64,000 bases of DNA from Planctomycetales bacterium (lineage in GTDB: Bacteria; Planctomycetota; Planctomycetia; Pirellulales; Lacipirellulaceae): NCBI GenBank assembly GCA_020427145.1, contig JAGQOU010000338.1, forward strand, positions 1,406-65,405, in the 5' to 3' direction. The notes beneath the pieces were generated by a model that saw only the letters and a program-made list of their open reading frames with translations, was not told the DNA's origin and did no database searches. A program made the translations under genes and the position numbers. Below, piece by piece: positions 20,647 to 51,359 of the stretch; within the stretch, counting starts at the first letter, position 1, and every line of letters begins with the position of its first letter.

Positions 20647-22116
20647 CTATGCCAGATCCCGATCCTCAAACAGCAGTAGCGCCAGCAGCATGGCCACGCC
20701 GCAGTACAGCGCGGTGTAGAGCAGCGCCCAGCCGAGGTACGCCATGGGGACCGTCGATTCGCCGGCGATGGCGCCCTCGATCTCGAAGTGGTCGAGCACT
20801 GGCAGGATCGTGGACACCAGTCGGCCGAAGAAGCGGACGAATACGATTTCGTTGAGAGCCGACTGCGACTTGACGATCAACGCCGCGAGGTGCCCCAGCA
20901 CGTAAATCGAGCCGCAGATGATCAGGTTGGGCAGCATCGGCAATCGCGTCGACACCGCCACGCTGATCGCGGCGAGCACCACCGACTCGAAGAAGGCGAG
21001 CACCAACCCCGGGATGATTCGCACCACTTCGGTGTGACACTCGGTCCATACCGGCATGGTCTTGGAGGATTCGCGGGCGTCGTACACCACCTTGAACGAC
21101 ACGCACGCCAGGAACACTACGCCCAGCACGACGAACATCAGCACGATCGGCCAGATGATGCCGAGGAATTTGCCGATGATGAACTGCCGGCGGCCGACCG
21201 GTTTGGAGAGCACGGTCAGCGCGGTGCGGCCTTCGATTTCGTCGGCGACCGACGTACTGGCGGTCCACAACGCCATGATGATCGCAAGCACCTTGATGGT
21301 GGTCATGCCCGAGGTTTTGAGCATCTTCACGTCTTCGCCAAACGTGTTGTAGGGGATGAACACGTAGGCCACCAGCGCCACCACGCCCAAGCCCGTGAGC
21401 AGCGCGAACAGCGGTTGGGAGATCGTCTCCTTGGCCGTGGCTGCGGCGATGACGGAGACGCGCGGAGCGAGCCAGCGAATCAGAAAGTAAATGCCGAACA
21501 GTCCGATGACGCTGACCGCGGCGATGGGGATCTGCCGCGCCTGCGGCGTCTTGACGTCGGTCTCGGCGAGAAACGTGAAATCGCTGTCGGAGGCCGTTTC
21601 GTTGGTCACGTACAGCGTGGTCACATCTTCGTCAAAGCCGCGCGGCGTGGGGCTGCCCGGCGTCCAGCGATACTGATCGCCCCCTTCGACCAACACCAGC
21701 GGATCGACGTAGCCCTTGCCCTCTTCGGTGTTCACGGCGACGTCTTCGTCGCTGTCGATGACATACTCCTGCAGTTCCTCGCCGCGGAAAACGAGCGGCA
21801 CCGGAAAGTCCTCGGAATTGGCGGGGACCGTAACCTGTACCACTTTGGGACCGACGGCGGTCAACCGACCTAAGGATTCCATCACGGCGCTCACCGGCAT
21901 CGTGGGGGCGGCAAAGATCGCCAGCGCCGCCATGGCTGCCACGACGTAGCCAATCGGTTGTAAGACGCCCTCATGCACGGCGGACGCCATCGCGTCGGCC
22001 GCGGGACGCCGCACGAGGTACAACAGGGCCCACAGCGCCAGCAGCGCCGCGGCGCCGATCGTGACGCCCACCGACAGGACCCAGATGGGGGTCAACCAGA
22101 TATACAGCTTTTCCAT
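20647..22116 (-). CDS. ABC-2-type transporter permease-like membrane protein with a large extracytoplasmic loop
   Basis: 489 aa with multiple TM helices. The C-terminal half (ADEIEGRTALTVLSKPVGRRQFIIGKFLG...) resembles ABC-2/NosY-like permeases. No ATPase gene is adjacent. Confidence 0.6.
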   Translation of the reverse strand: MEKLYIWLTPIWVLSVGVTIGAAALLALWALLYLVRRPAADAMASAVHEGVLQPIGYVVAAMAALAIFAAPTMPVSAVMESLGRLTAVGPKVVQVTVPANSEDFPVPLVFRGEELQEYVIDSDEDVAVNTEEGKGYVDPLVLVEGGDQYRWTPGSPTPRGFDEDVTTLYVTNETASDSDFTFLAETDVKTPQARQIPIAAVSVIGLFGIYFLIRWLAPRVSVIAAATAKETISQPLFALLTGLGVVALVAYVFIPYNTFGEDVKMLKTSGMTTIKVLAIIMALWTASTSVADEIEGRTALTVLSKPVGRRQFIIGKFLGIIWPIVLMFVVLGVVFLACVSFKVVYDARESSKTMPVWTECHTEVVRIIPGLVLAFFESVVLAAISVAVSTRLPMLPNLIICGSIYVLGHLAALIVKSQSALNEIVFVRFFGRLVSTILPVLDHFEIEGAIAGESTVPMAYLGWALLYTALYCGVAMLLALLLFEDRDLA

Positions 22117-35870: not shown

Positions 35871-36800
35871 ATGAGGACGTTCGCATTCATGCTTCTCGTG
35901 GCAGTCGCTGCCGCAAACGTTGTTCGGGCCGATGTGTTCGGCAGCGGGGCGGATACGTTCGAGATTGAATTTGTGACCATCGGCGATCCTGGCAATCCTG
36001 CCGACACGACAGGAGCCCCGAACCCTGCCGGCTCAGTTCCCTATCAATATCGAATTGGCAAATTCGAGGTTTCAGAGGCCATGGTTGATATCGCGAATAG
36101 CATGAGTTACTTGAGAATTGTGCACGACGACCGAGGCCCCAACAAACCTGTCACCCAGATCAGCTGGTACGAGGCCGCCCGGTTCGTCAATTGGCTCAAT
36201 ACCACCAATGGCCACCCGCCGGCCTACAAGTTCGTTGCGAACAGGGGATTGCGATTTGAATTGTGGCAACCAGGCGACCCTGGATACAATCCGGCGAATG
36301 CTGTTCGCAATAGCTTGGCATTTTACTTTCTGCCCAGCACGGACGAGTGGTACAAGGCTGCCTACTATGACCCAACGTCAGGCGCCTACTACGACTACGC
36401 GACGGGGAGTGATATCTCGCCCACGGCAGTCGCCAGCGGTTCGGCGGCAGGCACCTCGGTCTACGGTCAGCCGCACTTGCAGGGCCCCGCCGATATCACG
36501 CTTGCGGGCGGTCTGAGTCCCTACGGCACTATGGCCCAAGGAGGCAATGCCTTCGAGTGGGAGGAGACGGAATTCGACTTGGTCAATGACATGGCTTCGT
36601 CTGTTCGCGGAACACGCGGCGCCTCTTGGGGACACTCCAGCGACTTCTTGCGGTCGTCGGTTAGAACTCCTTTTGATCCGGGTTTGGGGGCCTCGGACGT
36701 TGGCTTCCGCGTCGCCTCCCGCATTCCCGAGCCCAGCACGCTGTTGCTGGGCTTGGTTGGCTTCGGCTTGTTGCTGCGAACGAAGCGAGCGTCCCCTTAG
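35871..36800 (+). CDS. FGE-sulfatase/SUMF1-like domain protein with PEP-CTERM anchor
   Basis: 309 aa with a signal peptide. FEIEFVTIGDPGNPAD...YRIGKFEVSEAM, GNAFEWEE, RGASWGHS and VGFRVA are blocks of the FGE-sulfatase (C-type-lectin-like) fold. The tail is IPEPSTLLLGLVGFGLLLRTKR. Confidence 0.75.
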   Translation: MRTFAFMLLVAVAAANVVRADVFGSGADTFEIEFVTIGDPGNPADTTGAPNPAGSVPYQYRIGKFEVSEAMVDIANSMSYLRIVHDDRGPNKPVTQISWYEAARFVNWLNTTNGHPPAYKFVANRGLRFELWQPGDPGYNPANAVRNSLAFYFLPSTDEWYKAAYYDPTSGAYYDYATGSDISPTAVASGSAAGTSVYGQPHLQGPADITLAGGLSPYGTMAQGGNAFEWEETEFDLVNDMASSVRGTRGASWGHSSDFLRSSVRTPFDPGLGASDVGFRVASRIPEPSTLLLGLVGFGLLLRTKRASP

Positions 36801-37370: not shown

Positions 37371-37702
37371 CTCAGGGCGATGTCGCCGCTGGCGGAAAAT
37401 CCACGGTTGAGTTTGAGTGGGTATGGAAGTCTCCGCCTAATTCACCGGCGGCGTTGGCGGTCGTGGAAGCGTCCTTTCGGATCGAGTTTAGCAGCGGAGC
37501 CGTTGACACAACTGGGATCAACGCCGCCGTGCTAGAATCTCAACCAGACGTTTTCGCGATGACGATCGCAAACAGGAATGAGTCTGCTACTGTTCGGCGG
37601 CGGGTCATTGGGCTCACTGAGGAAATCTCAGGGAGTTCCGATCGTCTCGACGAGATTCGACTTTGGGCGTCGGGTAAGTTGCCAGCCGACAACACCAAAT
37701 AG
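37136..37702 (+). CDS. Hypothetical lipoprotein
   Basis: 188 aa. GAGAGGG Shine-Dalgarno 6 nt upstream. MRLLLLALAFASG|C lipobox. Beta-rich body, no domain recognised. Confidence 0.6.
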   Translation: MRLLLLALAFASGCSVPPPNCGPATITEGFPATVSIVIDNPGRQPLQVTRVTSIISQHHLLVARGAGMPAEFSDACVVTQGDVAAGGKSTVEFEWVWKSPPNSPAALAVVEASFRIEFSSGAVDTTGINAAVLESQPDVFAMTIANRNESATVRRRVIGLTEEISGSSDRLDEIRLWASGKLPADNTK

Positions 37703-38294
37703 TCGCTCCGGCCCCCCATCACGCCCCGGCCGTGCTACGCTCCGCGGCATGACACACCGCGTGATCGACTTGCTGGATTTCACCCTCGACGCCGATCAGG
37801 CGCTGATTGGCCCGCTGGACCGCCGGGGACTCTCCGAAGCTGGTTGCCCCAACGGCTGGCCACTTCGACCGCAGCGCCGCACGATCGATCTGCGGGCCGG
37901 CGATAAGATCCTCTGCGAGGGGCGCTGGCATTGGTTCAGCGAGTCTAAGGCAATCGCGTCGCCTGACGACGCGGGCGGGTACATTCACCGCGTTGTGGAG
38001 GACGTGCAGCGGATTGCGTCGGGGTCGGGTGAGCAGGCCGTGCTACGCCGGAGAGAGCGGCACGAATCTCCGCAGAAAACGCCGTACGCAGGGGTGGCGG
38101 CGATCCGCATTCCGAATTCACCGTGCGTTTCGCACGACGACGCCCCAAATGCCGGCTCGCAGGCTACAATCGCGGTTGTCGACGCGGTGTCAGATCTGTT
38201 TGGCTGCCATTGCGCCTGTTTCGAGCGGGACAAGCTCATTCGCCACAGACCGAGGAGCCGCATCGTGCCGCCACGCGGGAATCGCACAGCTGAC

Positions 38295-39179
38295 ATGGGC
38301 GCCCGAGGTTTGAGGTCTCCCTGGAGCCTGGTGGTGATAGTCTGCCTCGCCTTTTGCGGTCAGCGGGCGGCCAGCGGCGGGACCGTGCAGGTCGCGCTGT
38401 TCACCGGCTTTAACGCCGGCGCCAACGCCGGCATGGACGTCCTCAATGAATTCCTGGCCGCGTCGGCCGTGAACGACTACACGGGCATGGTCTTCGAGTG
38501 GACGCAGCGGGAAAATGCGTTTGACTGGATTCAACAGCACGCCGAGGAACGAACCACGCTGGTCGTCATCGGCCATAGCTTTGGCGGGAATAGCGCTCTG
38601 CAATTGGCCAACAACTACCTCAAACCTGCGGGGGTCGCGGTCGATCTGACGATTCAAATCGACTCGGTCGAAAACTTCTACACGGGCTGGAACAACGTCT
38701 TGCCGAGCAATGTCGAGGCCGGGATCAACTACTTTCAGCACGCCACCGGATTTCTCGAACCGCAGGGCGAAGACTACGTGCAGGGCGCGCAGAATTATAA
38801 CGTGGAGGTCCTGTTCAACGACACGTCGATCACGCACACCTCGATCGACAACGATCCACGGCTGCACAGCCGCATCGTGCAGGACATCTTGGAAAACCTC
38901 AATCAGCCGACGGCCGACTTCGATGGCGACGGACTGATCGATGGCGCCGACTTTCTCAAATGGCAACGGGGCGAATCGCCGCGGGGCGGTAGCGCCGACG
39001 ACTTGGCGTTGTGGCAGTCGCAATACGGCGCCGGCGGGCCGGCGTCCGCGTCGGTCGCCGTCCCTGAACCAGCTTCGGCAACACTCGTTGCAATTGTGGT
39101 TGGATTCGCAGCCATCGTTGGTCGCAACCGAGCCAAGATTTACCCGAGGAGGTCGGGGGACTCGTTGGCGCGCCGGTGA
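38295..39179 (+). CDS. Alpha/beta-hydrolase (lipase-like GHSFGG) protein with dockerin-like + PEP-CTERM tail
   Basis: Start placed at the ATG at 38295 (MGARGLRSPWSLVVIVCLAFCGQRAASG signal peptide); the ORF is open in frame back to 37578. Nucleophile elbow VVIGHSFGGNSA. The tail at 38913-39176 reads ADFDGDGLIDGADFLKWQRG...LALWQSQYG...VPEPASATLVAIVVG. Confidence 0.65.
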   Translation: MGARGLRSPWSLVVIVCLAFCGQRAASGGTVQVALFTGFNAGANAGMDVLNEFLAASAVNDYTGMVFEWTQRENAFDWIQQHAEERTTLVVIGHSFGGNSALQLANNYLKPAGVAVDLTIQIDSVENFYTGWNNVLPSNVEAGINYFQHATGFLEPQGEDYVQGAQNYNVEVLFNDTSITHTSIDNDPRLHSRIVQDILENLNQPTADFDGDGLIDGADFLKWQRGESPRGGSADDLALWQSQYGAGGPASASVAVPEPASATLVAIVVGFAAIVGRNRAKIYPRRSGDSLARR

Positions 39180-39185: not shown

Positions 39186-42100
39186 TCACTCGTTGCCGCT
39201 GATCATGCCGTCGGCGGGGCCGCTATTGCGTCTGGCGACCCACGATTCGCCGAAGTGCGTCAGCGCCAGGTCGAATGCCGCTCGATGGCGTGTCGCGCCT
39301 GACCGCCGCTGCGCCTCTTCGCGGCGCGGCGTCTGCGGCCGCGGCGACGACTCGCCGGTCAACGACCGGGATAGGCCACGCTCCATTCCGTCTTGATGCG
39401 GCCCATTGAAGACAGCTTCGTCGCGCCAGGCGTCTTGAGCGATTGCGTCGTCGTCCATCAGCAACGCAATCCCGGCAAAGTCGCTCTGCCTGGACGCTTC
39501 AATCGCCTCGGCCGCTTGGTCAGAAAACGCAGCGGCCACCGCGGGCGCCAACGTGGTTCCGAAAGAGGCGCCCCATTGGGCCAGATCGGCGCCATCGACG
39601 TCGCGATCGGCGTCGGCGTCGCCATCGGCCGCCGTGGCGGTAAGCTGTGCGGCGCCAAACCCGCGCTGCCAAATGAGGAAATCGCCGCCATCGACGTCGG
39701 CGTCGCCGTCGAAGTCGCCGGGGACCGCCGGACCTTCGCCGCTCGTGCCGGGCGAACCGCCGCGGTAGTAACTGGCCCGCCAGTTCGCACCGGCGGCGGG
39801 ATCGGCAAAGGGATCGACAATCTCCACCGAATGGCCGCCGCCGTCGGCAACAGCCGGCCATGGAAAACTATCGTCGTAGGTGAAATCCTGGATCGTCTGC
39901 CCCTGGGCCCCAAGCAGGGCAATCCGCTCGCCGCCGTTCGATAGACTCGCCGATCCGTAGCCCTGGGGCGCCAGGTTCACGCCCGCGCCGTAGACTGCGG
40001 CAAAGGCAACCGGGTCCTTGGCCACCACGATCCGCGCACCGGCGGCGAGTTCGATGCCCGCGGGGAAGGAGTAGGGCGTTGACGCAAACTGAGCGATTTG
40101 CACGCCGTCGAGACTCACCGGCTGATTGCTCGGGTTGAGCAATTCGATGAACTCGAGAGACTGCTCGTCCGCCACGCCGGCCTGCGGCGCCGGGTTGTAA
40201 TGGAACTCCACAAGGCGGAGGTTCGAGGCGTCCGCCGGCGCCACGGAGGTAAACTCGGCCTCGTTGGCCGCCGACCAGACGCCGCCGCTAAGCGCACGGG
40301 CCCGCACTTGGACGGCGCCAACGATGTCCACCGGCGTTCCATTGTAAAGTTGCGCGGTCGCCGAGACGGCGCCGCCGATCGCCCGCGGGTCGGAGCCGTC
40401 GGTCGTGTACCAAATCGCCCCGGCCGGCGCCGACATCGTCAAGTCGTAACCCGCCGGCACTTGTCCGCCAAATTGGCTGAAGGTCGGCGCGGTGACGTTT
40501 GAGTAGAGTCCCGCCGAACGCAGCTGATTAAGGAAGATGGATTGGCGGTTGTTGAGGAAACCCAGCACGTTGCCGATTTCGTTGATCCATTGAGTCTCGA
40601 CGAGAGGCGTGCTGTAGTGCATATCGCCCCAACGCGCCGATTCGGCAACGATCGCCTCGGCAATTTCATCGGTAATGTCCAGATAGCGAGCCACGGACTT
40701 GGCGGTCGAGAGCGGACCATCGTTGAAGAACGCCCGATGCACGCGGTCGGCAAAGGCGATGCGGAATTCCTCGCTCGACTTCAAACTCGAATAGGGGATG
40801 GCCGCCCCCTCGGACACGCCAGTTCGATTGGTCGTGACGCTGGACCCGAGCCCCAAGGCGGTTTCCGTGTCCCAACTGATGAATTTGAAGCCCGTGCTGT
40901 CGGGGACGTTCTCCCGCACGGCCCACCAGTTGCGATGCGGCCAATCGACGTTGCCCATGTAGAAATTGAGCATCAAGTAGTCGATGTAGTTGGTCGCGTC
41001 GAGGTACGTGGCCAAGGCGGGATTGTCCGACCCGTCGGGATTGAGCCCCAGTACCTGCATGTAGGCCGCCGTCTTGGCCGATTGCGACGACGCCGAACCG
41101 ACCGCGTGCGACAGCGAAACCAGCGTGTTCCAGGCGTCCATCGTGCCGCTGTTGATGGCGCCCGAATTGATGGCGTCCCAGTCGTCCTTGGCGCCGCCGA
41201 AATAGCTGGCCGCGAACGAGTCGTCCGGCCGCTCGACTGGCGTGTAGAGCCCCCAATAGACGCCGTTGATATAAAGATGCACTCGCGAATGATGCGACGA
41301 AGGCTGGCCCAGGGCCAGTTGCGACTCGTTGCCAAACGCGTTGCGGGCGTACTGGGCCTTAGCGCCCGCGGCGTCCCACGCGTAGCCGTCGTTCGAATCC
41401 ATGCGGAGCACAATCGTGTCGAACGACGACGCGGCGTCGTTGCCGAATAGCGGGAAGTCGAGCTTGGTATTGCCCTCGTAAATCCCCTTGAACACCAACC
41501 GCATCGAATGCTTCTTGCTGAGCGAGTCGTTGCGAAAAGCGCCGCCGTGCATGCGAACGCCGGCGTCGATCTGGAACTCTTCTCCTGTCGCCGGGTCGAT
41601 GTACTCGACGCTCACAGCGCGCTCCCAGGCGCTGCCGCTGGCGGTTGAGTTGGTGTAGATGCCGGTGGGGCCGAACAGATCGTCGACGTCCATCACCAAC
41701 GACATCGTGGGAATGGCTTGGAGATCGTCCTTGATCGTCGCCGCGTAAATGCCGCCGTACTTGTCGCCGCCAATCGAGACGCCGGACGAGTTGAAGTTGC
41801 CAATGACGTCAGGGTCGAGACCGTAGTCGGCGCTGAAGGGCCCCCAGTTCGCGGGGAAGCCTTTATTGAGCGTGTTCAGATAGGTCTGCTGGACAATGTC
41901 GTCGACGAAAAAGTACGAGCTCGTCGCGGGCGACGACGGCAGGTAGCCGTCGTGGAACGCTTGCACGCGAATGGTCGTCGTGGCCGAGACAGTGATCGGC
42001 GCCGAGTAGAGCGAACCGTTGGTCGGCGAAGGCGCCGAGCCGTCGGTCGTGTAGTAGACGTCCCCCGGCGATACGCCGCTGTCAATGCTCAACTGGAAGG

Positions 42101-43805
42101 GCGCTGAGTAGAACCCATGGGGAACGCTCAACGTCGGCGTCGCAACAATGCCCGCATAACCCTCGCTGTTCGGCGCGCCGGGCGTGGGATTGGGCATGTA
42201 TTCCAGCGCCAACGTGTCGTCGACGAGCTCCGTCGCCGTCAGCCGAGGAACGGACAGCAGGTCGGAACTGACGTCGGTGATGTTCAGAGCGTGAATCGCG
42301 AGCACGTTCGTGCCCGCAACTAGGCTGTTCAGGTACGGCGTCAGGTTAAACTTCTGCGGCTGGACGGCCAAATTGTCGTCCCGATTCTCGGTGGCGTGCG
42401 ATTGATAATTCGGCAAGGCAGGCGCGGCCGCCGACGCGACGCGCACGCCGTTGAGATAGGCGACGAAGCCGTCGTCGTACTGCATATCGAGGGTCAGGGA
42501 ACCCAGCGCCGCGGGATCTGCGACGTCGAAATCGATTCGCTGGTAGACGCTGGTGGGATTCGAGTTCCACTGAGACGCGACGTTCAGGTCCACCAGTGGA
42601 GTAAAGTCGACGGCCCCGTTGGTGAGCAATTCGAATTCCGCGACCTGAATCGCAACGGGTTGGTTTTGCCCCGTGACCCCGAACTCCGTTTGCAGGTCAA
42701 ACCGGTAGTACTCGTAGGCGACGTAGTTCTCGAATTCATAGAGTCGCGTTTCAAACCGACCGGCAAAATTTTGCGCCGTGCGCGTGTCGATGACCGTGTA
42801 GTTGTTGCCGTCGTTCGAGCCGCTCAACGTCCAGGAATAGGGATCGCGATCCTCCGCGTCGTTGGCCGACGTGATGGTGTAAGCGCTAACGACTTGCTTG
42901 ACATTGTCGTCGAATTGAAACTCGTAGTAGGTGCCGGCGGGCATAAAGGCCAGCCACTTAGTAGCGGTGGAATTGTCGAGCGCCTTGTCTGGCTCTTCAT
43001 TGGTGGGCGACCCGGGAAAACCGCCGGCCGAGATTGTGCCGTTGACGACGCCATTCTCCTCAGGATCCGTGAAGTCGCCGCCAATCAGCCCTTCGGACAG
43101 TAGCGTGCCGTTGGGGATATTGGGCGGCGGGGCGTTGCCGACGTCGTAGCCCAGCCCCGAACCGCTGGAGGTCAACCAGCCGGCGTCATTAAACGAATTT
43201 AACGTCCATGCCGGCGGCACGCCAACCGACGGCGCATCGAGCGCGCCGTTGACGGGCAACAAGGCCGTCATTGGCGAGGCGGGGCCGACAAGCTCCAGCG
43301 CATTGACGTTCTCGTTGACGCCGTAGGAAACGTCGGTGCGCTGCGCCGGGTACTCGGGCGCAAATTCGTGAACTACGGTGTTCGCCGCATCCGTCAACGC
43401 GAGATACTCGCCGTCGGCGCTCAGACCGAAGTTTGCGTGCAGGCGGCCGTCGGCATCGACGTAGTCGTCAGTCGGCTGCCCCGAGGCGAACACGACCAGA
43501 TAACCGCCCGGTTCAAGGACCGTCTGGGGCGCTGCGGGAAACGTCCACTTCGCCGGACTCTGCTCGTCGTCAGTGAGGTGCCAGCCGGCCAGATCCACCG
43601 TCGCGGTCGTGGGATTGTAGATCTCGATCCAATCGGACGACTCGCCGTCTCCGTCGAAGAGCGTCGTGCTATTGGACGCCATGAACTCGCTAATCAACGG
43701 ACTTGCGCTGAGCAGATGGCGGTGCTCTAAGATCTCAAGCGAAAGCACTCGACGGCCAGGCGAAGGGTAACGCGTATCGGAGCGAGATGGCATAGGTGCG
43801 AACAC
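39186..43805 (-). CDS. Giant exoprotein: LTD - F5/8 type C - CHB_HEX_C-like - CotH kinase-like - CHB_HEX_C-like - LTD - double dockerin-like repeat
   Basis: 1539 aa. GTG start (the ATG at 43793 is the alternative). N-terminal GRRVLSLEILEHRHLLSA motif. Lamin-tail-like segments (ISEFMASN...DWIEIYNP...L.GW.L; later LVEFHYNP...EFIELLNP). Discoidin block at about 42624-43034. CotH-like blocks (HSMRLVFKG, VHLYINGVYWGLYTPVERPDD, YIDYLMLNFYMGNVDWPHRNWW, FISWDTE). Dockerin-like pair at 39558-39719. 123-aa acidic tail with no PEP-CTERM. Confidence 0.85.
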   Translation of the reverse strand: MFAPMPSRSDTRYPSPGRRVLSLEILEHRHLLSASPLISEFMASNSTTLFDGDGESSDWIEIYNPTTATVDLAGWHLTDDEQSPAKWTFPAAPQTVLEPGGYLVVFASGQPTDDYVDADGRLHANFGLSADGEYLALTDAANTVVHEFAPEYPAQRTDVSYGVNENVNALELVGPASPMTALLPVNGALDAPSVGVPPAWTLNSFNDAGWLTSSGSGLGYDVGNAPPPNIPNGTLLSEGLIGGDFTDPEENGVVNGTISAGGFPGSPTNEEPDKALDNSTATKWLAFMPAGTYYEFQFDDNVKQVVSAYTITSANDAEDRDPYSWTLSGSNDGNNYTVIDTRTAQNFAGRFETRLYEFENYVAYEYYRFDLQTEFGVTGQNQPVAIQVAEFELLTNGAVDFTPLVDLNVASQWNSNPTSVYQRIDFDVADPAALGSLTLDMQYDDGFVAYLNGVRVASAAAPALPNYQSHATENRDDNLAVQPQKFNLTPYLNSLVAGTNVLAIHALNITDVSSDLLSVPRLTATELVDDTLALEYMPNPTPGAPNSEGYAGIVATPTLSVPHGFYSAPFQLSIDSGVSPGDVYYTTDGSAPSPTNGSLYSAPITVSATTTIRVQAFHDGYLPSSPATSSYFFVDDIVQQTYLNTLNKGFPANWGPFSADYGLDPDVIGNFNSSGVSIGGDKYGGIYAATIKDDLQAIPTMSLVMDVDDLFGPTGIYTNSTASGSAWERAVSVEYIDPATGEEFQIDAGVRMHGGAFRNDSLSKKHSMRLVFKGIYEGNTKLDFPLFGNDAASSFDTIVLRMDSNDGYAWDAAGAKAQYARNAFGNESQLALGQPSSHHSRVHLYINGVYWGLYTPVERPDDSFAASYFGGAKDDWDAINSGAINSGTMDAWNTLVSLSHAVGSASSQSAKTAAYMQVLGLNPDGSDNPALATYLDATNYIDYLMLNFYMGNVDWPHRNWWAVRENVPDSTGFKFISWDTETALGLGSSVTTNRTGVSEGAAIPYSSLKSSEEFRIAFADRVHRAFFNDGPLSTAKSVARYLDITDEIAEAIVAESARWGDMHYSTPLVETQWINEIGNVLGFLNNRQSIFLNQLRSAGLYSNVTAPTFSQFGGQVPAGYDLTMSAPAGAIWYTTDGSDPRAIGGAVSATAQLYNGTPVDIVGAVQVRARALSGGVWSAANEAEFTSVAPADASNLRLVEFHYNPAPQAGVADEQSLEFIELLNPSNQPVSLDGVQIAQFASTPYSFPAGIELAAGARIVVAKDPVAFAAVYGAGVNLAPQGYGSASLSNGGERIALLGAQGQTIQDFTYDDSFPWPAVADGGGHSVEIVDPFADPAAGANWRASYYRGGSPGTSGEGPAVPGDFDGDADVDGGDFLIWQRGFGAAQLTATAADGDADADRDVDGADLAQWGASFGTTLAPAVAAAFSDQAAEAIEASRQSDFAGIALLMDDDAIAQDAWRDEAVFNGPHQDGMERGLSRSLTGESSPRPQTPRREEAQRRSGATRHRAAFDLALTHFGESWVARRNSGPADGMISGNE

Positions 43806-44166
43806 GGATGAGACTGCAAAGGAGACAGGCCCCGGCGAGCGGCGCCGGTGGCGCGCGCCGGTCTGCGAGCAACGACGCCGACGCCCTGGCTTGCGCGACT
43901 CCCGGCGTCAAACGGCATTTATCAACCGGGGAGACGAATCACAGCGTCGGCAACGGCGATTTGGAGGACGACCGTCCGCCAAACGACGCCCGCAAAACAA
44001 CGTTTGCCGACTCTGCAGTTGGGAAAAAACTCCGCGGTCGACGTCACGCTGGTCTAGAAAAGCGCCCCAGCGACGAACCGCGTCTTTCAGCGTGATCCCT
44101 TCCGCCGGGCAATGCAAGTCACTGGCGCCGCAACTTGTTTCGCCGAAGCCGTTGAGCGACCACGAC

Positions 44167-45687
44167 CTAATTTGTCATTTCGCCGATCGGCGCGTCGCGG
44201 CCTCCCGAGGCGTCAAAAATCGTCACGCGGATGTCGTCGAAATCCTCATCGATGCCGGACCCGTAGGAATCTTCCATGCCGATGACCACGCACCCCTGTT
44301 GTTCATTGCAAACCTTGATCGCCGACGATTCCCACGTTGAGCCATTCCCAGCAGGCAAGATCGACGTCCTGTGTTCGCCGAACAGCGCCAATTGCAACTC
44401 AACGTCGCCGCGGTTCTCAAGCAGCACGCCGCCGAGATTCGCCGACAGCCCTGTCCCGCGAGTCGCGCTCCACAGAATCTCGCCCGTCTCTTCGTTGGCG
44501 AGAAAGACGCAATTCTCCAATGCTGCCGCGGTGGTCACCCCCAGCACGACCAACTCGCCCGGAGCCAGCCGAAAACGGTGCATTTCCGAGGGTTCCGTCC
44601 GTGGCGTTCCGACGCTCTCCAGCGCGGCGCCGACGACGCGCAAACCTCCCAACGGGCGCCGCTCGTCGCGACTTCGCGATTCGATATGCAGCATGACGGA
44701 AATGTCGTCGTAGTCACCGTCAGCCGGGACGCTATGCGGCCGGACGTACGACTCAATACCCCCATCGTCACAGCCCAGCAGAACCACATCCGGCTCGTCA
44801 ATCACGACCTTCATGTCGCTGATTCGCCACCGCAAATCATCCATGTCGCTGAGCGAATCCGGATCCACGACTTGATGAATGCCGGTGAGCAGATAGTACT
44901 TCGGCATCGCGGAATCGTTGGAGGCCGACCAGGTGCCCAGCAGGCCATACTGGCGAGTCGTTCGCAGATAGCCGCTGCCATCCCGAATATAGTTGTTGAA
45001 CGAAACGCTCCGGCGAATCGGCATGCCCCGGGCATCGAGTTCGGTAATGGAAAAGTTGTTTTCCGACCTCGCATCGGCGGTGATGACCACGTCGGCCGTC
45101 TCGCCTGGCTTCAGTTCAAGCAGGTAAGCATTCACGGTCGCCCCGGTACTCAACTGCAAGGCGACGCGGCCCGGGCGCACCTCAGCCGCCACGAGATCGT
45201 TCTCAATGGAGTTCGCGAAGTAGGGTCCCGTCCACTTCACGTGCGTCACCTGCGGAATCCGCCACATCTCGCTGGGTTCGGCCGCAGCGGGCGGTTTCTC
45301 TGCAACGACGGCATGCGCCGACGCACCGTCGGGGCCTGCTCCGCGCCACAGGGGCGCGGCCGCCAAGAGCCCGATCAACCCTGCCGCCGTCGCCGCGCCA
45401 ATCCCCCATCTGCGACGAGAGGACCGGCGATCGCTCACGGGCTCGGCAAAGCCATTGGACGGAACCAACAGTTGGCTTGAATCCGCAGAGACGCTGGCGC
45501 CTAGCAACGTCTGGCATTCAATCCCCAACAGGACGTGCGTGTCCATCCATTGCCAGTAGTGGTCCTGCAATTCGGGATTGTCGAGCAAAATCTGTTCGAG
45601 CTCGCCCACCAATGACTGGCTGGAGCCCTCGTCGGCTAGCTGCGACAACAGCGTTTCGAGTTGGCGTATGTCTGCCCGCGTTATCAT
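44167..45687 (-). CDS. Single-pass anti-sigma-like protein with a large extracytoplasmic domain
   Basis: 506 aa, 56 nt downstream of the ECF sigma gene. N-terminal helical region (DIRQLETLLSQLADE...LLDNPELQDHYWQWMDTHVLL) is typical of planctomycete anti-sigma partners. TM segment at IGAATAAGLIGLLAAAPLW. The C-terminal ~390 aa contain two D-x-DYDDI / DEDFDDIRV acidic motifs. Confidence 0.7.
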   Translation of the reverse strand: MITRADIRQLETLLSQLADEGSSQSLVGELEQILLDNPELQDHYWQWMDTHVLLGIECQTLLGASVSADSSQLLVPSNGFAEPVSDRRSSRRRWGIGAATAAGLIGLLAAAPLWRGAGPDGASAHAVVAEKPPAAAEPSEMWRIPQVTHVKWTGPYFANSIENDLVAAEVRPGRVALQLSTGATVNAYLLELKPGETADVVITADARSENNFSITELDARGMPIRRSVSFNNYIRDGSGYLRTTRQYGLLGTWSASNDSAMPKYYLLTGIHQVVDPDSLSDMDDLRWRISDMKVVIDEPDVVLLGCDDGGIESYVRPHSVPADGDYDDISVMLHIESRSRDERRPLGGLRVVGAALESVGTPRTEPSEMHRFRLAPGELVVLGVTTAAALENCVFLANEETGEILWSATRGTGLSANLGGVLLENRGDVELQLALFGEHRTSILPAGNGSTWESSAIKVCNEQQGCVVIGMEDSYGSGIDEDFDDIRVTIFDASGGRDAPIGEMTN

Positions 45688-45743
45688 ATGGTTACGTCGT
45701 TTGCAAAAAGTCCTTGCCTAAATCCTCTTGTCGCATACCCGTT

Positions 45744-46376
45744 TTACGAAGAATACGATCCCTCGCTTCCGAGCGAGAGGCGACGCTCAATGCACCGGCG
45801 CAGCGATTTTCGTATCCGAAACAGGCACGATTTGACCGCAGCGGGCGTCTTTTGGGTCTGCTCCGCAATCTCGCAAATGGCGCTGTTGGAAAAATAGCGG
45901 TGGACCAGCATCTTCTTGTCGCCTTCGTTGAGCGACTGGACGCAAACCCGCAACGCACGCCGCGAGGGTTCGATGTCTTTTGAGGCAATCGGCCGCTGGA
46001 CCAGCTGCGACACCAACTCGCTGCTGAAGACGTGTCGATCGCGTCCCCGGTCTCGGAGCCACGCTTTTACCTGCCAGAGCGCCACGGAGCGCGCCCAAGC
46101 GTCAAAACTGGTTCCCGGACGAAACTCTTCGGCCTTTCTCCAGAGGACGATATTTGCCTCCTGGAGAATATTACCGGCGTCGTTCGGGTCTCCTACAAGT
46201 CCGCAAATGTATCGAAACAGCCCCACCTGGGCGCCCGTCAACAGGCGAACAAACTCATCGCTGGAGCCCCCCCGAGGGCTCTCCTCCGGAAATCGATCAG
46301 GTCCAAACGGTTCGGGTGGGAGTCGTGAGGCCATGGACATGAGCTCGATGGCTTGAGCGGACGAGTCGCGACGCAA
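45744..46376 (-). CDS. ECF-type RNA polymerase sigma-70 family factor
   Basis: 210 aa. Region 2 (LFRYICGLVGDPNDAGNILQEANIVLWRKAEEF....F.AWA..VA). Region 4 (ICEIAEQTQKTPAAVKSCLFRIRKSLRRCI). Several possible starts. Confidence 0.85.
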   Translation of the reverse strand: MRRDSSAQAIELMSMASRLPPEPFGPDRFPEESPRGGSSDEFVRLLTGAQVGLFRYICGLVGDPNDAGNILQEANIVLWRKAEEFRPGTSFDAWARSVALWQVKAWLRDRGRDRHVFSSELVSQLVQRPIASKDIEPSRRALRVCVQSLNEGDKKMLVHRYFSNSAICEIAEQTQKTPAAVKSCLFRIRKSLRRCIERRLSLGSEGSYSS

Positions 46377-47835
46377 TCGGCCGAAAACGAGAATCCGGCC
46401 AGATTCTTACCGCCGAACGATACCAGTCCGCAGGACGAAGGCAACCCAGCCCAGCCACCTGGGCAGCCCCTGGCGCGCGGCTCGCCTTGCGAAGCACGAA
46501 ATCACACAATCATCTTATTTGACAAGAGGTTGCGACAATTGGCGCCCAGCCTCCTCCCGCCATTGGCACACTGCCTGCGGCGGATCTCTCACGCCAAATG
46601 AACCATTCTCAGCTGGACCAATCGCAGCCCTCTCCGAATAGAAATACCACGGTAGACCGCAGGGTTGCAAAAAAACCGCGTGGACGGGCTAGCCCGACGC
46701 CGCCCAGCCGCTCGCCAACGGCCTCCATGCAGTTCCGAACTGGCGAAAGGCTCGCGGCTTGCCGCACATACTCCATCCACGCCCGCCACACGCTGGACCG
46801 ACTTGACAAATCTGCCACCAATTTCGATCTCTCGCAGGCCTCCCGCCTAAGCGATTTGCCCGCTGGTCCAGGATTGACCATTCCAACGAAGGCGTTTCCC
46901 AGCGCCCAGCTCGACGCAAGTTGTTTATCACAATCGGATTTCGGACGAGGTACGACCCTCCTCTGCTCCGGCTACGAGGCCGACATGCGGATTACCGCAT
47001 TCGCAAATCAACGGCGCATCTTGCCGCCGCCTGACAGTTTGCGAGTAAAACTCTCAAAAAAAACGAGATCATCGGCAACCTCGCGCCACCGACTGGTATT
47101 TCCTTCTACAGGGCAAATCGGCGTCGACGAAGTGGCGAAGCATTCTCGTCTTCCTGCCAAAGTGTATTCGCGGTTCGCATGACCGCCGATTTTCCCGCCA
47201 TGTCGTCTACGACCCCAGGGCAGCAGGGTCGTGAGAGCCGTTTACGCCGCAGCGTCGGCATGAGGTCACTCCAGCATGGGGGCCAATGTTGCCTAGTTTT
47301 TGACACGAAGAGGGCGTCGAGCTTGTCGCTTGGCAGCGGGGCGCCCGGCAGGTCGGATATGAGGCTATCCGACCGTTTGCCGAAGCGAAGCTGCGGTTAA
47401 TCGCCGCAAATGAGTTCTGGAATAGAGTAGCGGCAGGGTTACGACATAGTTTTGTTCGCTCGCGCGGGCAAGTTCGGTGGCCAAGGCAATTTGTAGGCCT
47501 TGGCTACCAAGCCGGCAGCGAGCGACGATTTTGGTCGCGCGCCGCGGGCAGACACTCCCGCGACGGGCGGATCGACCGAGAAGCTGCGTTGGTCATGCGG
47601 GGGCAAGCGACCGGCGCTCGCTTCTCGGTCGTCCGCTTCGTCGCTGAGCGCGATCGCAGAATTTGAGGGCGCACGTCAAGAGAATGGCGTTGCGCACAGT
47701 GGCAATCACCCCGAATTGAGACCGCCGTGAACATGGTCCGGGCGGGAGATTGCGTTGTGGAAGTCGTTCAAATCGTACGCAGTGCAACCGAGAACCAGAC
47801 TGAACAGCTCATCGCTTTTAGGAGATTTGATTGCC

Positions 47836-49644
47836 ATGACGAGGTTTCTTAAGTCGTTTGCCGCATCTCTGGGGTTGCTGGCCCTGTTGTCCCAGGCGCA
47901 TGCCGCGCCGTTCCTCAGCACCAACGATTTCATCATCGCGATCGACACCGACCCGGCGAATTTGCCGAGCAACTACCCCGGCGGTGAAGCGCCGATCAAC
48001 GCCCTTGATGGCGCAAGCACGTCGAAGTATCTGAACTTCGCCAAACTAAACTCAGGCATTATCGTGCAGCCGTTCATTGGCAGTACGACGGTCCAAAGCA
48101 TCCAGCTGACCACTGGTGACGATGCGGTCGAGCGGGATCCCTTTTCGTGGGAGTTGTATGGGACGAACGATCCGCTGTCGTCGGTCGACAATGGCGACGG
48201 AAGTGCGGAGAATTGGACGTTGATCGCGCAAAACGACGCAAACTTGCCGGAGGAGCGTCAAACGCTTGGCCCCGTGCAATCGTTTAGCAATTCGACGTCG
48301 TACTCGGCCTACCGCGTCCTCTTCCCCACCGTCAAAGACCCTGGCGGGGCCAACTCGATGCAGATTGCTGACATTGGGCTGTACGAATCAAACGACGCCA
48401 GTGGTCTGAGCGTTTGGGACGCATTTGAAACTGACGTTGTCGCGTTCGCCTATGCCCAACCCGATTCGAGATACTTCGACTACGAGGGCCCGGAAAACGT
48501 GCTTGACGGCAGCACGTTGGTACCGCGAGCTCCGCAGAGCGGCTATCCTGCGGCCGAGGGCCCGACGAATATCCTCGATGGCAACAGCGGAACGAAGTTC
48601 CTGAACTTCGGCGACGTGAACTCGGGCTTCATCGTCACCCCCGCATCGGGTGCGGCGCAAGTGCAAAGCTTTCAGATTACCACGGCCAACGACGCCGCGG
48701 TACGCGATCCGGGAAGCTGGCAGCTATACGGCACGAACGATCCGATCGTCAGCCTCGACAACAGCTACGGCGACGCCGAAAGCTGGACCCTGCTGGACGG
48801 AGGCGACTTGGCGTTGCCCGATGAGCGCTTCACCATGGGATCCGTCGTGCCGGTGAGCAACGCCGGGACGTACACGTCCTACAAGATGGTGTTCCCCACG
48901 GTCAAAGGCCCCAATGACGGCACCCTGCAGTTCGCCGACATGTCCTTTTACACTTCGACCGACGGCACCGGGTCCAACATCCTGGCGCCGGGAGATGCGA
49001 TCCTGGCGATCGACGAATCCCCGGCGACGCAGCTTACCAAATATCTTAACTTCGGCGGCGAGCGCAGCGGCTTGATTGTGACGCCCGACGCCGGCGCCAA
49101 GGTGCTGACGGGCTTCCAGATCACGACCGCCAACGACTTTGATTCGCGCGATCCGACAAGCTATGAGATTTACGGCACGAACGATCCGATCACCAGCGAA
49201 GCCAACGGCAACGGCGACAGCGAGAACTGGACGTTGATTTCCTCGGGCGCCCTGGATCTGCCGTTGGAGCGTCAAACAGATGACGAGCTAATCTCGTTTG
49301 CCAACTCGACTGCTTATGCATCGTACAAGGTCATCTTCCCGACCCTGAGGGATCCCGGCGAGAACTTTGACAACTCGATGCAGATTGCCAACATCCAGTT
49401 CTTTGACGATTCGGTCGGCGTCGACGTCGACCTGAACGACGACGGCAAGGTCGATGGCGCCGACTTCCTGCTGATCCAGCGGACCAACCCCGCGTTGACC
49501 GGCGACTGGCAAAGTCAGTTCGGCGCGACCGGGCTGGCCTCGGCCGCCGCGGCGGGCGTGCCGGAACCGACTTCGCTGGTCTTGGTCGTTGCGGCGGCTG
49601 CCCTGATGGCAGCCGCCGGCCGCGGCCGGATCGGACGGAGCTAG
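47836..49644 (+). CDS. Secreted protein with three discoidin-like modules, dockerin-like repeat and PEP-CTERM anchor
   Basis: Start at the ATG at 47836 (AGGAG 12 nt upstream; MTRFLKSFAASLGLLALLSQAHA). Modules at about 47911-48387, 48415-48951 (with a partial internal duplication of the N-terminal strand) and 48976-49404. Dockerin-like segment at 49426-49524 (DLNDDGKVDGADFLLIQR...DWQSQFG). VPEPTSLVLVVAAAAL at 49555-49641. Confidence 0.85.
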   Translation: MTRFLKSFAASLGLLALLSQAHAAPFLSTNDFIIAIDTDPANLPSNYPGGEAPINALDGASTSKYLNFAKLNSGIIVQPFIGSTTVQSIQLTTGDDAVERDPFSWELYGTNDPLSSVDNGDGSAENWTLIAQNDANLPEERQTLGPVQSFSNSTSYSAYRVLFPTVKDPGGANSMQIADIGLYESNDASGLSVWDAFETDVVAFAYAQPDSRYFDYEGPENVLDGSTLVPRAPQSGYPAAEGPTNILDGNSGTKFLNFGDVNSGFIVTPASGAAQVQSFQITTANDAAVRDPGSWQLYGTNDPIVSLDNSYGDAESWTLLDGGDLALPDERFTMGSVVPVSNAGTYTSYKMVFPTVKGPNDGTLQFADMSFYTSTDGTGSNILAPGDAILAIDESPATQLTKYLNFGGERSGLIVTPDAGAKVLTGFQITTANDFDSRDPTSYEIYGTNDPITSEANGNGDSENWTLISSGALDLPLERQTDDELISFANSTAYASYKVIFPTLRDPGENFDNSMQIANIQFFDDSVGVDVDLNDDGKVDGADFLLIQRTNPALTGDWQSQFGATGLASAAAAGVPEPTSLVLVVAAAALMAAAGRGRIGRS

Positions 49645-49692
49645 CAGCCAAGGTCGGCAAACAATTCGTATTCGTGTCTTAGGAGCCGTTGG

Positions 49693-50805
49693 ATGTCTCG
49701 GCGAGAAAATCTGAGGAGTCGTGGTTTCACGCTGGTCGAGTTGCTGGTGGTGATCGCCATCATCGGCGTTCTGGTGGCGCTACTGCTGCCCGCCATTCAG
49801 GCCGCCCGCGAGGCGGCCCGGCGGACGCAATGCACCAACCAGGTGAAGCAGATGATGACGGCGATGCTCAACCACGAGAGCGCCAAGCAGGCGTTTCCCA
49901 GCGGTGGCATCATTCCGTGGCCCAACATTCAGGACTACCTGACAGGCCCAAACGGTCGACCGTACGGGCCCGAAAAGCAGGGTCTAGGATGGGCGTATCA
50001 AATCCTTCCATACATCGAAGCGGACAACGTCCTGAATATTTCGAATCAGGCAACGTTGAACGAAACCGTCGTTCCCATGGTCAACTGTCCGTCGCGAAGG
50101 GGTGCGTCGTTTTATGTCGACGACATAACGGGTGAAAGAACGTCGCTAATGGACTACGCCGGTGCAGTTCCTTACCCCTCGGATAGTCAGAAGGGCCTCC
50201 CACCAGGAAGACCCGCTCCCTGGTACAACGTGACGGCGAGCGGCGGGGCGAACGACACAATAGGTTGCAACGAGGAGGGATTTTGGGGCGCCAAAGGAAA
50301 TGATCAGCCAGTCCATACGATCAAGCCGATCTCCTTTTTTGACGGCGATCCCAACTGGTACGGATTCTGGGGCGTGATTGTTCGCAGCAACCTATGCGTC
50401 GGCTGTGGCGGCGTATCCGGATACTATACGAAGATTTCCTTCGCCCAAATTGAGGACGGATCGAGCAATACGATCGTTATCGGCGAAAAACGCATGTTCC
50501 CCTCACGCTACGATACTGGCGATTGGGCCGACGACCGCGGTTGGACCGGCGGGTGGGACGCTGACATCTTGCGGTCGACGATTTGTGAGATCGGTCCCGA
50601 TGAGGACGTCCCCAACGATTCCTTACACCAACGTGAGTATCAAAGACTCGCCGGTTTTCGGTTCGGTTCGGCACACACCGGCGGAATGAATGCTGGCTTT
50701 GCTGATGGTTCGGTCCATTTTATGGGATACGATCTCGAGCCTCGGACGTTCAACAGTCTGGGGCATCGCAGCGACGGGGCGACTATTGACACGGGGGCGC
50801 TGTGA
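49693..50805 (+). CDS. DUF1559 protein with type IV pilin-like N-terminus and H-X9-DG motif
   Basis: 370 aa. AGGAG Shine-Dalgarno upstream. [41 protein letters not shown]-terminal SAHTGGMNAGFADGSV. Confidence 0.9.
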   Translation: MSRRENLRSRGFTLVELLVVIAIIGVLVALLLPAIQAAREAARRTQCTNQVKQMMTAMLNHESAKQAFPSGGIIPWPNIQDYLTGPNGRPYGPEKQGLGWAYQILPYIEADNVLNISNQATLNETVVPMVNCPSRRGASFYVDDITGERTSLMDYAGAVPYPSDSQKGLPPGRPAPWYNVTASGGANDTIGCNEEGFWGAKGNDQPVHTIKPISFFDGDPNWYGFWGVIVRSNLCVGCGGVSGYYTKISFAQIEDGSSNTIVIGEKRMFPSRYDTGDWADDRGWTGGWDADILRSTICEIGPDEDVPNDSLHQREYQRLAGFRFGSAHTGGMNAGFADGSVHFMGYDLEPRTFNSLGHRSDGATIDTGAL

Positions 50806-51242
50806 TCAGACAACGCCTGCAAACATGCGTCGTCACGATTCTACTTGGCGTCGTCGCTGCTACCGCTGGATGCACCGGCGATGGAACGTCTGCCGATGCG
50901 CGCGATCAGAAGAATTCACGTTTGGGATTCTTAGTGAAGCTTCATACTTACGCTATCAAGCAGCTCCGGCATCCGCCGCGAAGCGAAAGTGAATTCAAGG
51001 AATTCGTCGCCAAGCAAGACGCCTCTATGTTTGAGCGGATGAACGTCGCTTCGGCCGATGAGTTGTTCGTCTCGGACCGCGACGGCAAGCCGTACGTCGT
51101 GATCTACGGCAAGCCGCCCGTTGGGGCTGTTGGCATCGTGGCTTACGAATCAGAAGGCGTCGATGGCGTGCGCGAAGTAGGTTTCGATACGGGAGACGTA
51201 CTGAGCATGACAGCCGAAGAATTCGCTAAGACGGGACTGTAA
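50802..51242 (+). CDS. Small lipoprotein translationally coupled to the DUF1559 gene
   Basis: 146 aa. The GTG overlaps the DUF1559 TGA (GTGA). Lipobox VVAATAG|C. Confidence 0.6.
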   Translation: MIRQRLQTCVVTILLGVVAATAGCTGDGTSADARDQKNSRLGFLVKLHTYAIKQLRHPPRSESEFKEFVAKQDASMFERMNVASADELFVSDRDGKPYVVIYGKPPVGAVGIVAYESEGVDGVREVGFDTGDVLSMTAEEFAKTGL

Positions 51243-51296
51243 CGACCAGCCGCTGGGTCGGTTTCGTGAAATATCGCCGCTGCCGCTGGCGACGTG

Positions 51297-51355
51297 CTTG
51301 CCGCACTCTAGTTTTGCGTTCTTGCGCACTCGCAGCGTCGCACCGTAGCGCACTC
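51297..51355 (+). promoter_or_regulatory. Three direct repeats CTTGC(C)GCACTC / TAGCGCACTC spaced 23-24 bp, abutting the start of the 1199-aa gene
   Basis: The GCACTC cores end at 51308, 51331 and 51355. The putative TTG start is at 51360. Function unknown; candidate regulator-binding sites. Confidence 0.35.
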
Positions 51356-51359
51356 AACA

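Follow-up and report, generated by a model that had tools for sequence, protein, structure and literature searches.

The DNA analysed here, referred to as the window, is a stretch of 64,000 nucleotides from contig JAGQOU010000338.1 of a Planctomycetales bacterium. Its GC content is about 60-68%, its coding content is typical of planctomycetes, and it shows hallmarks of this group such as DUF1559 proteins, PEP-CTERM tails and "Planctomycete extracellular" N-termini. Our work deals with three genes that follow each other on the minus strand and encode a sigma factor of the extracytoplasmic function (ECF) type, a single-pass membrane protein with the layout of an anti-sigma factor, and a giant exoprotein with CotH and LTD domains. 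We propose that the first two form a signal-responsive switch, probably one that senses glycans, which would act on two divergent promoter-like sites upstream of the sigma gene. The features of the three genes are the following:

45744-46376, minus strand: sigma factor gene, 210 aa, TTG start (alternative ATG codons at 46340 and 46334)
44167-45687, minus strand: anti-sigma gene, 506 aa, ATG start
45502-45687, minus strand: three-helix cytoplasmic domain of the anti-sigma protein, residues 1-62 (AlphaFold2 model, conserved in 57 family members)
45346-45408, minus strand: its single transmembrane segment, residues 94-114 (Kyte-Doolittle peak 1.73, preceded by RRSSRRR)
44677-45171, minus strand: first LecB/DUF4114-like beta-sandwich, residues 173-337 (GCDDGG...DGDYDD motif, AlphaFold2)
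44721-44695, minus strand: DGDYDDISV, residues 323-331, acidic motif of domain 1
44212-44643, minus strand: second LecB/DUF4114-like beta-sandwich, residues 349-492 (GMED...DEDFDD motif, Foldseek)
44250-44224, minus strand: DEDFDDIRV, residues 480-488, acidic motif of domain 2
43806-44166, minus strand: spacer between the anti-sigma gene and the giant gene, 361 nt
39186-43805, minus strand: giant gene, 1539 aa, GTG start (alternative ATG at 43793)

The sigma factor and its membrane-bound partner

The sigma factor is an ECF factor of TIGR02989, a family of Rhodopirellula and Verrucomicrobium. Pfam places a Sigma70_r2 domain at residues 53-112 and a Sigma70_r4_2 domain at residues 140-192 and recognises neither region 3 nor region 1, which makes the protein a group 4 (ECF) member of the sigma-70 family. 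With the NCBIfam profiles it reaches 59.5 bits on TIGR02937 (cut-off 42.9) and 144.4 bits on TIGR02989 (cut-off 124.55), and the latter match covers 157 of the 158 profile positions.

The partner gene begins 56 nt downstream of the sigma gene, as judged from the coordinates of the open reading frames (ORFs). Its product belongs to a previously unannotated planctomycete family: Pfam and NCBIfam scans of the whole protein gave nothing, and scans of its three parts gave one weak match to DUF4114. Since a word-indexed protein search returned only two relatives, and the same three proteins again when it was repeated with an alignment of 57 sequences, an exhaustive profile search among 1.84 billion representatives (clusters at 50% identity) was needed to gather the family. 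This search yielded 129 clusters of relatives, about 100 of which are full length (~500 aa) and share the same architecture. The 57-sequence alignment, from which conservation was read, shows conservation over the N-terminal ~60 aa, then a variable linker that includes the transmembrane segment, and finally two outside domains which end in IGWDDSG...DxDFDD and GFED...DWNDxRV, respectively.

A structural model of the protein was built with AlphaFold2 from this alignment (mean predicted local distance difference test, pLDDT, 76.9). Its N-terminal part folds into three helices (residues 4-20, 24-34 and 38-62; pLDDT >90), and this is the presumed sigma-binding part. The positively charged RRSSRRR patch lies on the N-terminal side of the transmembrane segment, and the topology is N-in. 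Thus, with its gene adjacent to that of the sigma factor, a short N-terminal domain, one transmembrane segment and a C-terminal part outside, the protein has the generic layout of a single-pass anti-sigma factor. The known families of such proteins were not found in it: Residues 1-118 had no Pfam match even at E<=10, a profile search of solved structures returned no anti-sigma factor, the HxxxCxxC zinc-binding motif is absent from residues 1-62, and the ZAS and RskA domains do not occur among the 57 family members. Likewise, there was no match to the FecR domain (PF04773), the FecR N-terminal domain or RsgI_N in the window protein or its 57 relatives. By membership, the locus therefore encodes an ECF sigma factor of TIGR02989 and a single-pass partner outside the ZAS, RskA, FecR and RsgI families.

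These results bear out most of what an earlier note, made from the bare sequence, had said of the two proteins. It had described three co-directional minus-strand genes with gaps of 56 and 361 nt, which agrees exactly with the coordinates, and a sigma/anti-sigma pair, which is indeed a genuine ECF sigma factor with a single-pass anti-sigma-like partner. The helical cytoplasmic N-terminus, the one transmembrane segment followed by an outside part of about 390 aa (we count ~392 residues), and the two acidic motifs are all found as it had read them, and its view that the outside domain is neither of the FecR nor of the RskA type holds for the window protein and for the 57 members.

Pairing of the two genes is a constant feature of the family. 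Our comparison covers 11 loci: the window, two Logan contigs (L001 and L002), seven genome contigs from Pirellulales or other Planctomycetota (L003-L009, with three Aeoliella genomes among them), and a metagenome contig (L010), the one further locus that the metagenome scan contributed. A sigma gene of the same type, whose product is 44-67% identical to the window sigma factor, directly precedes the gene of the anti-sigma homologue in 11 of the 11 loci, and because this order never varies, the pairing goes beyond chance.

The lectin-like fold of the ectodomain

In the AlphaFold2 model, a disordered linker and transmembrane region leads to two beta-sandwiches (residues 173-337 and 349-492), for which pLDDT is high in most places; the outside part is internally repetitive, its halves matching each other at E=9e-4. 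When the ectodomain was compared with the PDB using Foldseek, the only compact matches of high probability were calcium-dependent lectins: LecB/PA-IIL, RS-IIL and CV-IIL (structures 1ous, 5a6q, 4ut5, 1uqx and 2boi) were matched over about 130 aligned columns with a probability of 1.00, target-normalised TM-scores of 0.68-0.73 and a root-mean-square deviation of 3.7-4.2. For domain 2, the deviation of the LecB matches was 3.7-4.0. The sponge lectin thrombocorticin also had a probability of 1.00 with a looser match. As far as Foldseek on a predicted model can tell, the anti-sigma domains have the beta-sandwich fold of LecB. A PDB sequence search with the anti-sigma profile found no relative.

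Within domain 1, G305, D307, D308, D325 and D328 are invariant among the 57 sequences, and D323 is conserved in at least 90% of them. The profile of domain 2, vGFeDs..d.DfnD, was placed on the LecB stretch VGSEDGTDNDYND, and its C-terminal stretch aligns to VGSEDGTDNDYNDAVV of LecB, CV-IIL, RS-IIL and BclA, both at E 0.2-0.8. We take the calcium ligands of LecB in the aligned stretch to be E95, D99, D101, N103 and D104, a numbering that agrees with the printed alignment; their equivalents are E472, D480, D482, D484 and D485 in domain 2 and D307, D323, D325, D327 and D328 in domain 1. The LecB site is completed by the C-terminal carboxylate of a neighbouring subunit. The glycine that provides it has no counterpart here: domain 1 is internal, and about 14-20 residues follow domain 2 and its motif. 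The ectodomain as a whole is acidic, with 59 Asp and Glu as compared to 32 Lys and Arg in residues 119-506.

A second link leads to DUF4114 (PF13448). The window protein matches this profile through domain 2 with 17.1 bits at a cut-off of 27 (E=0.011, profile positions 50-81 of 85), and 28 of the 57 family members match it at E<=0.01, the best of them at 1.1e-7. Because the sequence links of the window protein itself lie below significance, the case for a lectin rests on the fold match and on the matches at the level of the family. DUF4114 has been reported to be a calcium-dependent sugar-binding module (PMC9109919, PMC11934332): It was linked to PA-IIL-type lectins and to a calcium-dependent function in PilY1.1 of Myxococcus (PMC9109919), and the mannose-binding protein of Acanthamoeba binds mannose by its DUF4114-containing domain (PMC11934332). 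Taken together, the fold and the family matches bear out the resemblance to DUF4114-type calcium-binding repeats that the earlier note had pointed out, and they sharpen it to a tandem LecB-like lectin sensor. Judged from the model, the outside part of the anti-sigma protein most likely binds carbohydrate via calcium.

Promoter-like sites, neighbouring exoproteins and the giant

Direct DNA alignment of the regions upstream of the sigma genes and of the spacers between anti-sigma and giant genes gave nothing alignable; the motif described here was derived de novo from the 11 loci and cross-validated. Enumeration of dyads in the 450 nt upstream of the sigma cores identified GCAAC...GGTA in six of ten loci (shuffled maximum, four), and its reverse complement was equally frequent. 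The resulting consensus, cGCGCAACC-N14-GGTAT-n-(T/A), has 25.7 bits over 20 sites, and its spacer is unconserved and of fixed length. The sigma upstream intergenic region contains a sigma-facing copy in 11 of the 11 loci and a divergent pair in ten, with each site oriented toward its own downstream gene. With position weight matrices (PWMs) trained only on loci outside the lineage of the locus under study (leave-out PWMs), the divergent pair provided the top two matches in eight of the 11 sequences, including the independent locus L010, and ranked first and third in the 64-kb window and in L004. The two sites of the window, P1 and P2, are its only motif matches with at most one mismatch. We predict from the position and orientation of the motif that the sigma and anti-sigma genes are transcribed from P1 under autoregulation, and a divergent operon (47755-54959) with intergenic gaps of 48, -4 and 117 nt from P2:

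46644-46668, minus strand: P1, GCAACC-N14-GGTAT facing the sigma gene (exact match, leave-out rank in the top three)
47075-47099, plus strand: P2, divergent from P1 and facing the exoprotein operon (exact match, top leave-out PWM match)
47755-49644, plus strand: 629-aa exoprotein, first gene after P2 (weak Pfam/NCBIfam matches)
49693-50805, plus strand: DUF1559 pseudopilin-like protein (clusters with DUF1559 proteins near the pair in other loci)
50802-51242, plus strand: 146-aa protein of unknown function (4-nt overlap with the end of the DUF1559 gene)
51360-54959, plus strand: 1199-aa GSDH-type exoprotein, last gene of the operon (Pfam GSDH, E=1.4e-27)

The 629-aa exoprotein carries three discoidin-like modules, a dockerin-like motif and a PEP-CTERM-like tail, and it has homologues in the surroundings of the pair in L001 and L004-L007. 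The 146-aa protein had no match in a Pfam search; in L002, its homologue adjoins a DUF1559 gene. GSDH denotes a sugar dehydrogenase beta-propeller. The discoidin-like module, which is similar to accessory domains of the GH92 mannosidase 7NSN, is common to the 629-aa protein (47977-49437), the GSDH-type protein (52392-52889), the giant (42582-43013) and the product of an ORF far from the locus (8560-9780, module at 8713-9687). DUF1559 genes are found near the pair in nine of the 11 loci, and in six they are the first gene of the divergent cluster after P2. The discoidin-repeat and GSDH-dockerin homologues of L004 lie downstream of the anti-sigma gene, and thus members of the same few gene families occur now on one and now on the other side of the sigma/anti-sigma unit. 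Neither a comparison of the P2 leader (47100-47754) with L001, made to find a conserved small ORF, nor an Rfam search of 43600-47900 turned anything up; the 1.38-kb intergenic region may hold something unrecognised.

Several further matches and neighbours were recorded. A leave-out PWM match recorded as the third-best of the window (14.8 bits) at 21046-21075 on the minus strand, CGCGAATCC...CGGTATGG, sits inside long ORFs (20647-22116, minus strand; 20788-21873, plus strand) and is probably due to chance. Matches in coding DNA of L003 (5295-5324), L004 (5182-5211) and L005 (16125-16153) were rejected as artefacts of a recurring string, TACACGGTATGG, that mimics the -10 half of the motif; in one candidate frame, this string would presumably read Y-T-V-W as in dockerin-like repeats. 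In L009, an IS200-like transposase gene (4466-5479, plus strand) occupies the place where P2 (6439-6468, minus strand) should meet the divergent operon, which suggests that the cassette is disrupted there. The divergent cluster of five loci contains an ORF of about 900 aa on the minus strand (L003 5070-7823, L004 5050-7707, L005 4790-7474, L006 4719-7487, L007 4857-7535). In the two of these that were scanned (L003 and L005), a PEP-CTERM-like match falls halfway along the protein, around residues 430-450. This is an odd place for a C-terminal sorting signal and could stem from an ORF call that was extended too far or point to an internal anchor. Finally, two more exoprotein genes of the window (35871-36800 and 37578-39179, both plus strand) converge on the 3' end of the giant gene; one product combines an FGE-sulfatase domain with a PEP-CTERM tail, and the other resembles alpha/beta-hydrolases and ends in a PEP-CTERM tail as well, with a dockerin-like D-x-D-G-D motif in addition.

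The giant contains two LTD domains, an F5/8 type C domain, two CHB_HEX_C domains and a CotH domain according to Pfam. The CotH match (PF08757) reaches 76.4 bits with a cut-off of 23.8 and spans residues 751-1089 (profile positions 2-320 of 322); a PDB sequence search with this domain found no relative. Its C-terminus (39186-39700) has two dockerin-like D-x-D-x-D-G-x-D-F/L-x-x-W motifs after the second LTD domain, and we read the tail as about 120 aa of low complexity, rich in Ala, Arg and Glu, and free of PEP-CTERM. A CotH-LTD giant lies directly downstream of the pair in the window and in L001 only; in the latter, it is 72% identical and has the same position, the anti-sigma protein is 48% identical, and an alignment of the intergenic DNA is no longer possible. 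Such a giant also occurs in the three Aeoliella genomes, there at the far end of the divergent cluster, in the order DUF1559, ~900-aa ORF, PEP-CTERM protein and CotH-LTD, whereas in L002 the gene downstream of the anti-sigma gene is that of a convergent aminotransferase.

The earlier note had proposed that the pair switches on the giant, and had noticed only a weak AAC-N15-CGT element in the 361-nt spacer. This element is present (44020-44000) and is overlapped by AAC-N16-CGT (44004-43983), with about 0.07 AAC-N15-CGT matches expected per 361 nt on one strand. The family motif is absent from the spacer: the best PWM score is 4.0, which is reached by 49 sites of the window. Nor did we find a sigma-70-like promoter or a terminator-like hairpin on the minus strand of the spacer, an Rfam match, a block conserved between the window and L001, or a dyad shared by the five spacers upstream of CotH-LTD genes beyond shuffled controls. 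The motif lies upstream of the sigma gene instead, and P1 and P2 fall outside all three ranges that had been suggested for promoter inspection (43806-44166, 46377-46500 and 47700-47835). The note had named the lack of a group-specific promoter upstream of the giant, together with expression of the giant independent of the sigma factor, as what would speak against its proposal, and since the motif was not found in the spacer, the first half of this holds at the level of sequence. Of the signal-responsive switch that was to control the giant, the ECF pair is borne out, and the promoter at the giant is not; direct control of the giant by the sigma factor is not supported. A link between the giant and the pair is still plausible because CotH-LTD giants are neighbours of the pair in five of the 11 loci, in two different positions, and it would probably work by read-through from P1. 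This link is kept alive by the lack of a terminator, by the gene order retained in the diverged L001 and by the presence of giants near the pair in two lineages. Membership of the giant in the regulon by this route seems to us to have a little less than an even chance.

A possible switch, its rivals and related systems

The locus as a whole can be read as a signal-responsive ECF switch of a planctomycete-specific type with a lectin-like sensor and control through P1 and P2, and we regard this explanation as moderately probable. The 506-aa partner would use its three-helix N-terminus to keep the sigma factor at the membrane, and its two tandem LecB/PA-IIL-like (DUF4114-like) outside domains would bind a carbohydrate through calcium. 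By analogy with other single-pass anti-sigma factors, binding of the ligand may release the sigma factor, and the free protein would direct RNA polymerase to the back-to-back sites P1 and P2. P1 would then drive the sigma and anti-sigma genes, and P2 the divergent operon for the discoidin-repeat, DUF1559, 146-aa and GSDH-type proteins, a set of secreted carbohydrate-related proteins. The giant has no promoter of this kind of its own; if it is part of the regulon, transcription from P1 may reach it by running through the 361-nt spacer. Direct results of the analysis are the order of the genes, the layout of the domains, the fold, the conservation of acidic residues, and the motif with its position and orientation, and the coherence of the putative regulon, i. 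e. the shared discoidin-like module and the families that swap sides, counts for the switch as well.

Several points weigh against this explanation. All of the support for the switch is computational. The N-terminal domain of the partner resembles no known anti-sigma domain family in sequence, and the idea that it binds the sigma factor therefore rests on gene context and architecture. On the side of the sensor, the link to LecB at the sequence level (E 0.2-0.8) is below significance, the DUF4114 score of the window protein is under the cut-off and likewise not significant, and an internal domain cannot supply a C-terminal carboxylate of the LecB type for the calcium site. As for the promoters, the sites were chosen as best matches so that the conservation of the consensus is somewhat inflated, L002 has only the sigma-facing site, which is weak in the leave-out PWM test, and the leaders in the window are unusually long: about 270-300 nt from P1 to the sigma gene and 650-740 nt from P2 to the 629-aa gene, with mostly 45-370 nt in the other loci.

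Four rival explanations have to be set against the proposed switch, and two of them concern the giant. The sigma factor might activate it directly from a cognate promoter in the spacer such as the AAC-N15-CGT element at 44020-44000. The three adjacent, co-directional genes, an arrangement that is retained in L001, and the two AAC-CGT elements, which slightly exceed expectation, would fit this idea, but the motif of the family is GCAACC-N14-GGTAT, the best score in the spacer is reached by 49 sites of the window, no block is common to the spacers of the window and of L001, and the five CotH-LTD spacers have no dyad above shuffled sequences; we judge direct activation to be highly improbable. 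It is a good deal easier to imagine that an unrecognised promoter, of the housekeeping or another type, serves the giant independently of this sigma factor and that the adjacency of the giant is lineage-specific synteny without regulatory meaning, a possibility that we take seriously while leaning against it. The spacer is long, unconserved and without the cognate motif, a spacer of about 320-500 nt precedes every CotH-LTD gene seen, and six of the 11 loci have no such gene within 10 kb, and L002 has a convergent aminotransferase gene downstream. Yet two independent lineages have a giant no more than about 6 kb from the pair, and they do so in two arrangements, downstream (window and L001) or distal in the divergent cluster (the three Aeoliella genomes), the giant of the window shares the discoidin-like module with proteins of the P2 operon, and no terminator-like hairpin separates the anti-sigma gene from the giant.

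The other two alternatives concern the pair itself. If the 506-aa protein were a co-expressed membrane lectin or adhesin and the paired motif the operator of another regulator, the lack of a known anti-sigma match and of HxxxCxxC in the N-terminal domain would be explained; its gene, though, is directly downstream of the sigma gene in all 11 loci, and the conserved short helical N-terminal domain, the one transmembrane segment and the N-in topology are the standard layout of anti-sigma factors. Moreover, a promoter fits better than a palindromic operator because the two blocks of the motif are set apart by a spacer whose length is fixed and whose sequence is not conserved, and because the motif strictly points toward the downstream gene. 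This alternative is very doubtful. The ectodomain might also sense calcium or another metal, or bind a protein or a component of the cell envelope rather than an external glycan, in line with its strongly acidic character, with conserved residues that are metal ligands and with the unavailable C-terminal carboxylate. Against this stand the calcium ions that serve sugar binding in the LecB family and in the DUF4114 proteins studied so far (PMC9109919, PMC11934332) and the carbohydrate-related exoproteins encoded next to the pair, and we consider such a sensor unlikely, if clearly less so than the loss of the anti-sigma function. The preferred reading is thus still that of a sigma/anti-sigma switch which probably senses glycans.

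Planctomycete ECF sigma factors are very numerous, and we know of almost none with a known signal, promoter or regulon. The locus family presented here provides testable predictions in the form of a calcium-plus-sugar sensor, a 25-bit promoter motif and a compact secreted carbohydrate-related regulon, and experiments are feasible because family members occur in cultured Aeoliella strains, of which those of L005 and L006 carry the same cassette. If the proposal is true, the principle of an anti-sigma factor with its own carbohydrate-binding sensor, so far that of the clostridial RsgI proteins, would be extended to ECF sigma factors and to another phylum, and there would be a first regulatory handle on the giant CotH-LTD exoproteins. 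It is tempting to go further and to speculate on an undescribed planctomycete class of anti-sigma factors that directly reads external glycans by tandem LecB-like calcium-lectin domains and, via bidirectional ECF promoters, controls a cassette of secreted or surface proteins that includes the CotH giants. A specific polysaccharide would then switch on extracellular phosphorylation or surface remodelling via giant atypical kinases of the CotH type; this most far-reaching version is a long shot, to which we grant a small chance.

How does the locus compare with known systems? It shares much with the classical pairs of an ECF sigma factor and a co-transcribed single-pass anti-sigma factor such as sigmaE-RseA and sigmaW-RsiW: a sigma factor made of regions 2 and 4 only, a partner gene directly downstream, short cytoplasmic helices, one transmembrane segment and an outside sensor, and an autoregulated promoter (predicted in our case) with AAC in its -35 block and GT in its -10 block. 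Unlike in these pairs, the N-terminal domain of the partner matches no described anti-sigma domain family. FecI/FecR and the ECF/anti-sigma pairs linked to polysaccharide utilization loci in Bacteroidetes (PMC7671368) are likewise ECF pairs, tied to taking up or processing an external substrate, with adjacent target genes; in contrast to them, the window locus has no FecR domain and no neighbouring TonB-dependent transducer, and the sensor is part of the anti-sigma protein itself. The promoter-like motif has the same two-block form as the promoters of Streptomyces coelicolor sigmaE, with (C)GCAACC at -35 and GGTCT or CGTCT at -10 (PMC6767563), for example the validated sigE target CGCAACC...GGTCTA (PMC6767563), whereas the motif described here has a spacer shorter by about 2 nt and GGTAT as its -10 block, and the sigma factors belong to different ECF families.

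Among known domains, the calcium-dependent fucose/mannose lectins LecB/PA-IIL, RS-IIL, CV-IIL and BclA are closest to the sensor, together with DUF4114; its beta-sandwich fold matches that of bacterial lectins with a TM-score of ~0.7, and its acidic stretch E/D-D...D-x-D-[FYW]-[ND]-D aligns with the calcium ligands of LecB. LecB is a soluble tetrameric lectin, whereas the domains described here stand in tandem inside a membrane protein with a role in signalling. A longer loop separates the first acidic pair from the DxDxxD block, the calcium site would have to do without a C-terminal glycine carboxylate, and the sequence scores are below the curated thresholds. The ECF classification paper does not mention DUF4114, and the tandem lectin-like module is not among the anti-sigma sensor domains that it describes (PMC7826278); our limited literature search found no report of an anti-sigma factor with a LecB or DUF4114 sensor. 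Carbohydrate-binding modules outside the membrane, including tandem beta-sandwich PA14 sensors, are known from the RsgI anti-sigma factors of Clostridium thermocellum, where sigmaI/RsgI controls secreted dockerin-bearing carbohydrate-active proteins (PMC10328401, PMC6852018, PMC4711584). Unlike SigI, the window sigma factor is an ECF factor (TIGR02989), its partner lacks RsgI_N and any periplasmic domain recognisable as autoproteolytic, the sensor resembles LecB and not CBM3 or PA14, and the host phylum is diderm. With regard to the mode of action presumed here, SigI/RsgI would nevertheless be the closest system, a resemblance that is one of function only.

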